DNA from: Scenedesmus sp. PABB004
Lineage: Eukaryota
Direction: 5' to 3'
NCBI GenBank assembly: GCA_014905635.1
Contig: CM026547.1
Location: forward strand, 4,216,001-4,280,000
DNA: 64,000 nt
Of the stretch, positions 44,943-45,886 are shown one piece after another. The number at the start of each line of letters is the position of its first letter. Position 1 is the first letter of the stretch. A program made the position numbers and the translations under genes. The notes below the pieces were generated by a model that was given only the letters and a program-made list of their open reading frames with translations, did not search any database and was not told where the DNA came from.

Positions 44943-45836
44943 ATGACGGTCGACGCGAGCGCCGCGGCGGCCGCGGCCGCCAAGGAGGCCAAGCTGGCCA
45001 AGAAGCTGGCCAAGCTGCAGGCCAAGGCGGCGGCCGCCGGCGGCGACGCCGACGCCGTGGCTGCGGCGGCCAAGGCCGCCAAGAAGCTCGCCAAGGCGCG
45101 CGCCGCGGCGGCGGCCGCGGCGTCGCCTGCCGACACCACGCCCTCCACTGAGAGCGAGGACAGCGCGGTCGCGCTCGCCGCCGAGAGCGGCAAGAAGAAG
45201 GGCAAGGCCAAGAAGCGCGCCCGCGACGCAGCAGGTGCGGCGTGGCGGCGCGGGCGGCGGTGTTGGTGTTGTTGCGGGTGCTGGCCTGCTCGCCAGCAGC
45301 GCGCAGCCAGCGAGTTAGCAGCGCGCAGCCAGCGAGCCGGCCAGCCGCCACATCCACGGGTGGGCCCGCGGGCGCCTTTAGCCGGGCGCCTGCGGGCCGT
45401 AAACCAGGAGCACCCGGCCAGCGTGCGGGGCCAGGGGCGCGCGTCAGCGCCCCCTGCTCCCCGCCCGGCCGCCCCTCGTGGGTGCACAGTCCGTGAGCTA
45501 AACACCCGAGAGCGACGGCGCGCGGTCGAGCCCAGCCCGCGGGGTTCCCGTGCGCCCGCGACTGCTGATTCCATCACCTTGGGGAGCCCCGTCGGGGCAG
45601 TTACCTCTTGGGTCTTACCCAGCATGCGACACGCGCGGCGCACAGCACGCAGCGCAGCACGCAGCGCGCCCGCGGCCGGTGACCGCGGCGCGGCCACGCT
45701 CTCTCGCGCGCGCGCCCGCTCACCCGCCCCACTGCCACGCCCGCCCCGTCCCGCGCCGCCCCGCCACGCCACCAGCGGCTGCGGCCGACGAGCCCGCCGC
45801 GGCCGGCGGCAAGCAGGCCAAGAAAGCCAAGAAGGG

Positions 45837-45886
<50 letters not shown>

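Follow-up and report, generated by a model that had tools for sequence, protein, structure and literature searches.

A conserved intron-encoded H/ACA-type RNA with a U17-like layout in a DBP3-type helicase gene of a green alga

The host helicase gene and its first intron

The stretch under study comprises 64,000 nt of contig CM026547.1 of Scenedesmus sp. PABB004 (positions 4,216,001 to 4,280,000, forward strand) and is referred to below as the window; its G+C content is 78.5%, and positions are counted from its first nucleotide. A gene for a DEAD-box helicase lies on its + strand, and the first intron of this gene carries the subject of this report, an RNA of box H/ACA small nucleolar RNA (snoRNA) type that was proposed in the original prediction to be a counterpart of U17/snR30. 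RNAs of the box H/ACA class comprise a hairpin, a hinge bearing the H box (ANANNA), another hairpin, and an ACA placed 3 nt from the 3' end, and they associate with Cbf5/dyskerin, Nop10, Nhp2, and Gar1. U17/snR30, an essential member that does not modify its target, is needed for processing of 18S ribosomal RNA (rRNA) and binds Utp23, Kri1, and Krr1.

The helicase gene begins with an ATG at 44943, followed by a Lys/Ala-rich exon 1 that extends up to 45234. The intron was delimited as follows:

45235-45775, + strand, intron 1 of the DBP3/RH5-type DEAD-box helicase gene, 541 nt, GT..AG

The reading frame is kept across the exon 1/intron 1/exon 2 junction, and exon 2 runs into the DEAD-box core, which matches the Pfam DEAD family (E=1e-31). 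The closest named relative of the helicase core is a Scenedesmus sp. protein (75% identity), followed by proteins of Volvocales and Trebouxiophyceae. The relatives are named "DBP3" by JGI and those from plants "RH5", and among solved structures DDX17 and DBP2 are nearest. The earlier assignment of the locus to a DBP3-type host in a green alga is reasonable in view of these names and of the Scenedesmus protein as nearest relative, and the intron length of 541 nt given with it was borne out.

Conservation and architecture of the RNA

Homologs were sought among metagenome loci with an 18-nt motif taken from the most shared stretch. The search found 47 loci, of which four are true homologs (L019, L025, L001, and L031, the last two with an identical RNA) and the other 43 are chance matches. 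The same RNA is present at four independent loci, i.e. the window, L019, L025, and L001/L031, with lengths of 280, 219, 228, and 365 nt, respectively. It is single-copy within the window, and motif scans of viral contigs and genome contigs gave 0 matches. The 3' halves of three copies (window, L025, and L019) served to build a covariance model, R1; in 200 kb it matched exactly the window and the four related loci and nothing in the other 43, and L001/L031, which had not been used for training, scored 83.7 bits (E ~8e-16). Because R1 picks out solely these loci, the conservation of the element goes beyond chance. Membership of a real conserved family of H/ACA-type RNAs, of unusual size and with a U17-like layout, is well supported and highly probable.

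The copy in L019 lies in the orthologous intron, with a Lys-rich exon upstream and the helicase downstream (72% identity over 204 aa). The copy in L025 is found ~1 kb downstream of an open reading frame (ORF; 382-924) that matches Pfam U3snoRNP10/UTP10 with E=1.7e-7 and 32.1 bits, below the curated cut-off of 34.4 bits, and its host looks like UTP10/HEATR1, another gene of the small-subunit processome. No helicase was found within 2 kb of the copy in L031. Since the helicase gene is the host in the window and L019 and a UTP10-like ORF precedes the copy in L025, the element, like snoRNAs, moves from one ribosome-biogenesis host gene to another.

The features of the RNA in the window are listed below, where Pa denotes the closing stem of the 5' domain, HP1 to HP3 are hairpins, P1 and P2 are stems of the 3' hairpin, and MFE stands for minimum free energy.

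45355-45634, + strand, conserved RNA, ~280 nt; predicted ends are the base of Pa and 3 nt past the ACA
45357-45362, + strand, 5' strand of Pa (CGGGUG), paired with 45503-45508
45363-45398, + strand, HP1, a perfect hairpin; a hairpin is found here in 4/4 copies, with a different sequence in each
45406-45493, + strand, HP2 (GGA-GCACCC...GGGUGC-ACAG-UCC), seen in MFE folds, with a species-specific insert; it holds a non-conserved ACA at 45486-45488
45503-45508, + strand, 3' strand of Pa (CACCCG), paired with 45357-45362
45509-45514, + strand, H-box-like hexamer AGAGCG; a hexamer stands directly after Pa in all copies
45517-45555, + strand, internal hairpin HP3 (GG-UC-GAGCCC...GGGUUC-CC), from the RNAalifold consensus, with compensatory pairs in L025
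45557-45628, + strand, 3' hairpin with P1 = CGCG-AC-UGCUG / CAGCA-UGCG, from RNAalifold and model R1
45568-45575, + strand, 5' strand of the 3'-hairpin loop, AUUCCAUC, invariant in four copies
ACCU/GGGU plus GGGG/CCUC, + strand, P2 of the 3' hairpin, with one G-C to C-G swap in L001
45586-45598, + strand, apical stem-loop of the 3' hairpin, invariant
45614-45619, + strand, 3' strand of the 3'-hairpin loop, CUUACC; C(U/C)UACC across copies, CCUACC in L019
45629-45631, + strand, ACA box, in 4/4 copies at equal distance from P1

Similarity among the copies ends at the base of Pa and immediately past the ACA. In a MAFFT alignment, 45559-45631 takes up 73 positions, of which 60 do not vary among the four copies; upstream of the 3' hairpin 23/208 positions are invariant, L001 being poorly aligned there. 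The core of the intron had been described as structured and less GC-rich, and both points hold: 45540-45634 has 66% G+C as compared with 78.5% in the window, and the + strand of 45350-45640 folds with z=-2.99 (0/200 shuffles as good). For the - strand z was -1.42 (12/200 shuffles as good); the z-scores, together with G-U pairs in the conserved helices, favour the + strand.

All four MFE folds show one plan, i.e. Pa enclosing HP1 and HP2, then the hexamer, HP3, the 3' hairpin, and the ACA. The 5' domain is a three-way junction with no conserved loop. Pa is predicted in each of the four folds and has changes on both sides in three of its six pairs; such changes were also found in HP2 (two pairs), HP3 (one), and P2 (one), and RNAalifold on the 3' halves gave 35 pairs, 4 of them changed on both sides. 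HP2 has the general form GGA-GCNCCC...GGGNGN-4 nt-UCC, in which both stems stay paired with one compensatory pair each and the 4-nt bulge reads ACAG, AUAG, GCAG, or ACAU. The hexamer is AGAGCG in the window and L001, ACACUA in L025, and AGAAUA in L019; it fits ANANNA in 2/4 copies, has G as the sixth base in 2/4, and can be written A-N-A-N-N-R in 4/4. HP3 is greatly enlarged in L001.

Every motif named in the original prediction was found at its place (hairpins 45363-45398 and 45410-45485, AAACCA at 45401-45406, AUUCCAU at 45568-45574, CUUACC at 45614-45619, and the ACAs), and the succession of 5' domain, H-like box, internal hairpin, 3' hairpin, and ACA stands. For the H box and the internal hairpin, however, the positions are different. 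AAACCA at 45401 is not conserved in the relatives and falls inside the 5' domain, and the hairpin 45410-45485 is not conserved either, the conserved one being 45517-45555. Comparative conservation, together with contigs that bridge 45491 (see below), disfavours the former H box, the former internal hairpin, and an end at 45491.

Contigs from sequencing libraries gave a further view of the RNA. Each of 16 sequencing runs holds no more than a 0.20 share of the stretch, and four runs were compared at 80% likeness; X2 and X4 are metatranscriptome runs of one sample, and X1 and X3 are DNA runs. Contigs of X2/X4 are identical to window positions 45369-45530, 45371-45530, and 45501-45581, and so bridge 45491. 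At least seven further RNA-library contigs carry diverged copies of 45553-45630. At least three of the diverged contigs have GAGUCC(C)..(G)GGAUUC at the position of HP3, and the unaligned upstream ends of the diverged contigs contain a hairpin GAG(C/U)CC..GG(G/A)UUC, which corresponds to window 45528-45549 except that a C-G pair is replaced by U-A. Position 45630 is where the last of the RNA-library contigs stops. Low-depth contigs of the DNA runs cover 45053-45203, 45226-45360, and 45257-45407. X2/X4 have no contig on the exons or the remaining intron; this missing cover was not counted as evidence, and the library contigs carry no information on expression level.

As an alternative to the long RNA, an ordinary H/ACA guide at 45350-45491 had been considered. 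This separate guide was rejected: its ACA at 45486 is not conserved, being AUA in L025 and absent in L019, and the RNA-library contigs run across its end.

Complementarity to rRNA

In the published descriptions, two motifs of U17/snR30, m1 (AUAUUCCUA) and m2 (AAACCAU), occupy the P1-proximal sides of the loop in the 3' hairpin. They pair with the rm1 (GGAAU...) and rm2 segments of 18S rRNA, the intervening rRNA helix giving rise to a three-way junction, and the m1/m2 element is described as "invariant" 7 nt upstream of the ACA.

Green-lineage 18S rRNA was collected through the target of a published probe, which gave fragments at 77 loci (L048-L124), contaminants in bacterial assemblies. Among the 61 loci with enough upstream sequence, the rm1 position reads AUGGGAU in 54 and AUGGAAU in two (L072 and L074), and five are not rRNA. 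L074 alone of the 77 has, downstream of the probe site, a signature that sets it apart and that we take to be chlorophyte-type. A two-motif scan for further chlorophyte 18S rRNA gave L074 again and nothing else, and none was found in viral contigs. As a side observation, many bacterial genome assemblies (L048-L124) carry short plant-type 18S rDNA contigs, 56 of the 61 being rRNA, which looks like reagent or sample contamination.

AUUCCAU, at the position of m1 as had been proposed, forms seven Watson-Crick pairs with AUGGAAU at the rm1 (GGAAU) site of the 18S rRNA in L074 and L072. In L074, GCAUGGAAUAA is aligned by Rfam to the consensus GCAUGGaAUaA of small-subunit rRNA; for UGGCCU the aligned consensus is ugguuu, a sequence complementary to m2. 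The other loop strand follows the earlier remark that it keeps ACC alone of m2, as it reads C(U/C)UACC in the four copies; its CUUAC pairs with GUAGG located 34 nt downstream of AUGGAAU and 6 nt beyond the rm2-equivalent. In the 34 nt between the two segments a hairpin forms (-8.1 kcal/mol), as happens in the three-way junction of yeast. The U to C change in L019, the only substitution in the loop, turns U-G into C-G against GUAGG in this model. Of the predicted pairing with 18S rRNA, the complementarity of AUUCCAU to rm1 thus stood, as far as a contaminant chlorophyte-type 18S rRNA can stand in for that of this alga; the rm2-equivalent is unmatched.

Other rRNA segments were compared with the same loop strands, using plant rDNA on two contaminant contigs (L125 and L126) that include 18S and 5.8S in full and 25S over its first two thirds. 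No large subunit (LSU) rRNA was found in L131. In the 25S rRNA of L125 and L126 (~1096-1133), a domain II segment AUGGAAU-N25-GGUAAG gives a perfect 7+6 Watson-Crick match to both strands. The RNA could accordingly be read as an H/ACA-type chaperone of LSU rRNA that binds 25S domain II in an inverted, non-modifying topology. A match as good was obtained with 41/1000 shuffles over ~4.2 kb of plant rRNA, and GGUAAG likewise occurs in L127, a fragment of eukaryotic LSU rRNA whose assembly also contains L074. The AUGGAAU arm is variable, however, reading AUGGGGG in L127 (6 bp, two of them G-U), and CCUACC of L019 would place a C opposite an A halfway along the 6-bp arm. We know of no precedent for such a chaperone, and this reading is very unlikely.

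The RNA may instead be an ordinary pseudouridylation guide, the target of which, in rRNA, small nuclear RNA, or other RNA, would read (complement of C(U/C)UACC)-U-N-(complement of AUUCCAUC), with the U converted by Cbf5; in that case HP3 and the large 5' domain would be lineage-specific decoration. Both strands of the loop stay invariant as far as P2, the last C of AUUCCAUC would pair in such a guide, and the RNA is intronic in ribosome-biogenesis genes, like many guides. The best canonical site in the plant rRNA is ..CUGG-UC-GAUGGAAC at ~1873-1882 of 25S (7+2 bp). It is no better than shuffles (141/1000), with only 2 bp on one arm, and no canonical match of more than 5 bp was found in the chlorophyte-type fragments. 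At this site the Arabidopsis table has no pseudouridine beginning U186-, U187-, or U188-, 2'-O-methyl U1882 being the sole entry nearby. Furthermore, the invariance of P1, P2a, and the apical stem-loop is not explained by guiding alone, and the length of 219-365 nt exceeds the ~140 nt of Chlamydomonas H/ACA records.

A site next to rm1 has a predicted guide in a land plant. SnoR99 is assigned to U803 of Arabidopsis 18S rRNA, a predicted but unmapped pseudouridine directly beside rm1 (PMC8351944, supplementary table 3). Its partial sequences show no evident likeness to the RNA described here, and snoR99 may merit re-examination as a land-plant binder of rm1.

Relation to U17/snR30 and proposed role

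The RNA shares several traits with U17/snR30. Its length of 219-365 nt lies well above that of an ordinary guide and within the range of 203-606 nt given for U17/snR30 in table 1 of PMC7601244. HP3 comes after the H-like box and before the 3' hairpin, a place that corresponds to that of the internal hairpin described for yeast snR30 in the same source. The 3' hairpin's distal portion, reported to be essential in snR30 (PMC2664660), is invariant here. Directly after P1, and invariant in the four copies, UGAUUCCAU shares 5/9 positions with AUAUUCCUA, those of the AUUCC core of m1, and AUUCCAU is complementary to rm1 of 18S rRNA in the inverted topology. The RNA is intronic, like mammalian Snora73 (PMC7038934). 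A precedent for drift of one of the two recognition motifs exists in the snR30 of T. brucei, in which m1 is altered, m2 is invariant, and pairing with 18S rRNA is kept by changes in the rRNA (PMC2664660). The case differs from the present one, where the core of m1 is kept and m2 replaced. Other differences from U17/snR30 are the small loop of 8+6 nt and the three-way junction in the 5' domain.

With the CrACA guides of Chlamydomonas the RNA has in common an H-like box, the ACA, a loop between P1 and P2, a distance of 15 nt from P2 to the ACA, and an origin from introns in a chlorophycean alga. It is 1.5-2.6 times longer (219-365 nt as compared with ~140 nt among the records listed in the supplement of PMC5122169), lacks a conserved loop in the 5' domain, has invariant stems and an invariant apical loop, and has no convincing canonical target in the rRNA searched. 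Its loop motifs occur in none of the 71 CrACA records covered from that supplement.

A number of observations weigh against identification of the RNA as U17/snR30. The Rfam models (4227) gave no match in the window at gathering thresholds, and even at E<=10 no H/ACA family was matched in 45150-45850 or in L019, L025, and L001. Motif m2 is absent, as CUUACC shares ACC alone with it, and UGGCCU, the rm2-equivalent in L074, is left unpaired. The distance from the loop to the ACA is 9 nt (CAGCAUGCG) in 4/4 copies, not 7, and becomes 7 nt solely if the top two pairs of P1 are counted as loop. From the base of P2 to the ACA there are 15 nt, the canonical geometry of a guide (14-16 nt; a distance of 14-15 nt is required according to PMC2664660). 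The sixth base of the hexamer is G in 2/4 copies. The chlorophyte-type 18S rRNA is one contaminant contig in a bacterial assembly rather than the own rRNA of this alga, and its match with GUAGG amounts to 5 bp and leaves a linker of 5 nt. The statistics of complementarity are weak: when the whole 572-nt fragment of L074 is allowed, inverted matches of equal quality were found with 162/1000 shuffles. The count for GGAAU in particular speaks in favour: pockets that cover it and have at least 5 bp of 3'-strand match downstream were found with 188/20000 composition-preserving shuffles and 30/20000 random pockets. As the locus was chosen for its likeness to rm1 complements and a genome has ~100 such pockets, coincidence is not negligible. 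Nor are AUGGAA-type matches of the loop unique, given the 7+6 bp inverted and 7+2 bp canonical matches in plant 25S rRNA. Finally, the evidence at the RNA level comes from a single sample, as contigs of two runs that give neither strand nor ends.

The proposal of U17/snR30 identity is thus partly supported: its size and architecture, its AUUCC core, and its 7-bp match to rm1 speak for it, and m2, rm2, spacing, and Rfam do not. An snR30-like role as a non-modifying 18S rRNA chaperone is favoured, tentatively and at somewhat less than even chances, on the grounds of its architecture, of a distal hairpin that does not vary, of the m1 core, and of the match to rm1. The ordinary guide described above stays alive because m2, rm2, and spacing fail, no Rfam model matches, and the 15-nt geometry is canonical; it is a possible but doubtful explanation.

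The element might also be a conserved H/ACA-like RNA with another role (orphan, regulatory, or Cajal-body), or a structured intron element that yields no stable RNA. Such readings could draw on the statistically weak target assignment, the limitation of the RNA evidence to contigs of one sample, and the lack of a match to any known family. The different hosts, a helicase gene and in L025 a UTP10-like gene, speak against a cis element of one pre-mRNA, and conservation stops exactly at the stem base and at the ACA. The Cajal-body box motif is UGAG, and the apical loops have no box of this type; a conserved telomere-template-like stretch is not present either. For the last two reasons the telomerase-RNA and Cajal-body readings were rejected, and another role as a whole is unlikely.

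For the favoured snR30-like role, assembly, target, and function are predicted from the features described above. The segment 45355-45634 would be an intron-borne box H/ACA-class snoRNA of unusual size, released after splicing, with trimming that stops at the base of Pa on one side and 3 nt beyond the ACA on the other. One set of H/ACA core proteins would assemble on Pa and the H-like hexamer and another on P1 and the ACA, to give a ribonucleoprotein. The working part would be the nearly invariant 3' hairpin, the loop strands of which may bind expansion segment 6 (ES6) of pre-18S rRNA: AUUCCAU would pair with AUGGAAU, at the site homologous to yeast rm1, and C(U/C)UAC with GUAGG ~40 nt downstream. 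In this arrangement the order of the rRNA segments would be inverted as compared with that in a pseudouridylation guide, and therefore no uridine would be offered to Cbf5. The RNA would act as a transient chaperone for 18S rRNA maturation, like U17/snR30, and the invariant apical stem-loop may be a docking site for specific assembly factors.

In evolutionary terms, the RNA may be the missing U17/snR30 of the green lineage, or at least of chlorophycean algae, i.e. an essential, non-modifying chaperone of ES6 with a rewired second contact; a probability of about one in three (0.35) is assigned to this reading. The m1 core and the inverted three-way-junction binding would have been kept, and rm2 would have changed from UGGUUU to UGGCCU in the lineage.

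An RNA built like U17 is not yet reported for plants or green algae in the literature searched. A 2021 survey states that snR30/U17 was not identified in Arabidopsis (PMC8351944), and by term search no occurrence of snR30, U17, or SNORA73 was found in an Ostreococcus snoRNA survey and a plant snoRNA-family survey. The earlier impression that no green-lineage snR30 ortholog is well described agrees with the plant, Arabidopsis, and Chlamydomonas literature searched, in which none is reported, although an earlier description in Chlamydomonas may exist outside this literature. Having the layout of U17 and a loop complementary to rm1, the RNA is a concrete candidate for research on ribosome biogenesis in plants and algae, and the covariance model is now at hand for scanning other green genomes. 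If the RNA is a modification guide, it would still represent an uncatalogued, unusually large H/ACA family moving between ribosome-biogenesis host genes.

Several minor features were observed in the host intron and its surroundings. The ends of intron 1 (45227-45254 and 45750-45777) are 79% complementary over 28 nt, which could bring the splice sites together. Directly upstream of the RNA there is a long, near-perfect hairpin at 45265-45358, with a 22-nt tandem duplication inside (45284-45327), and L025 has a comparable long hairpin at 1618-1709, ~135 nt upstream of its RNA copy. Both hairpins draw chance matches to microRNA models, and chance matches of this kind to long hairpins were the sole Rfam matches at E<=10. 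In exon 2 of the helicase gene, a CAG run at 45838-45886 encodes a poly-glutamine tract.

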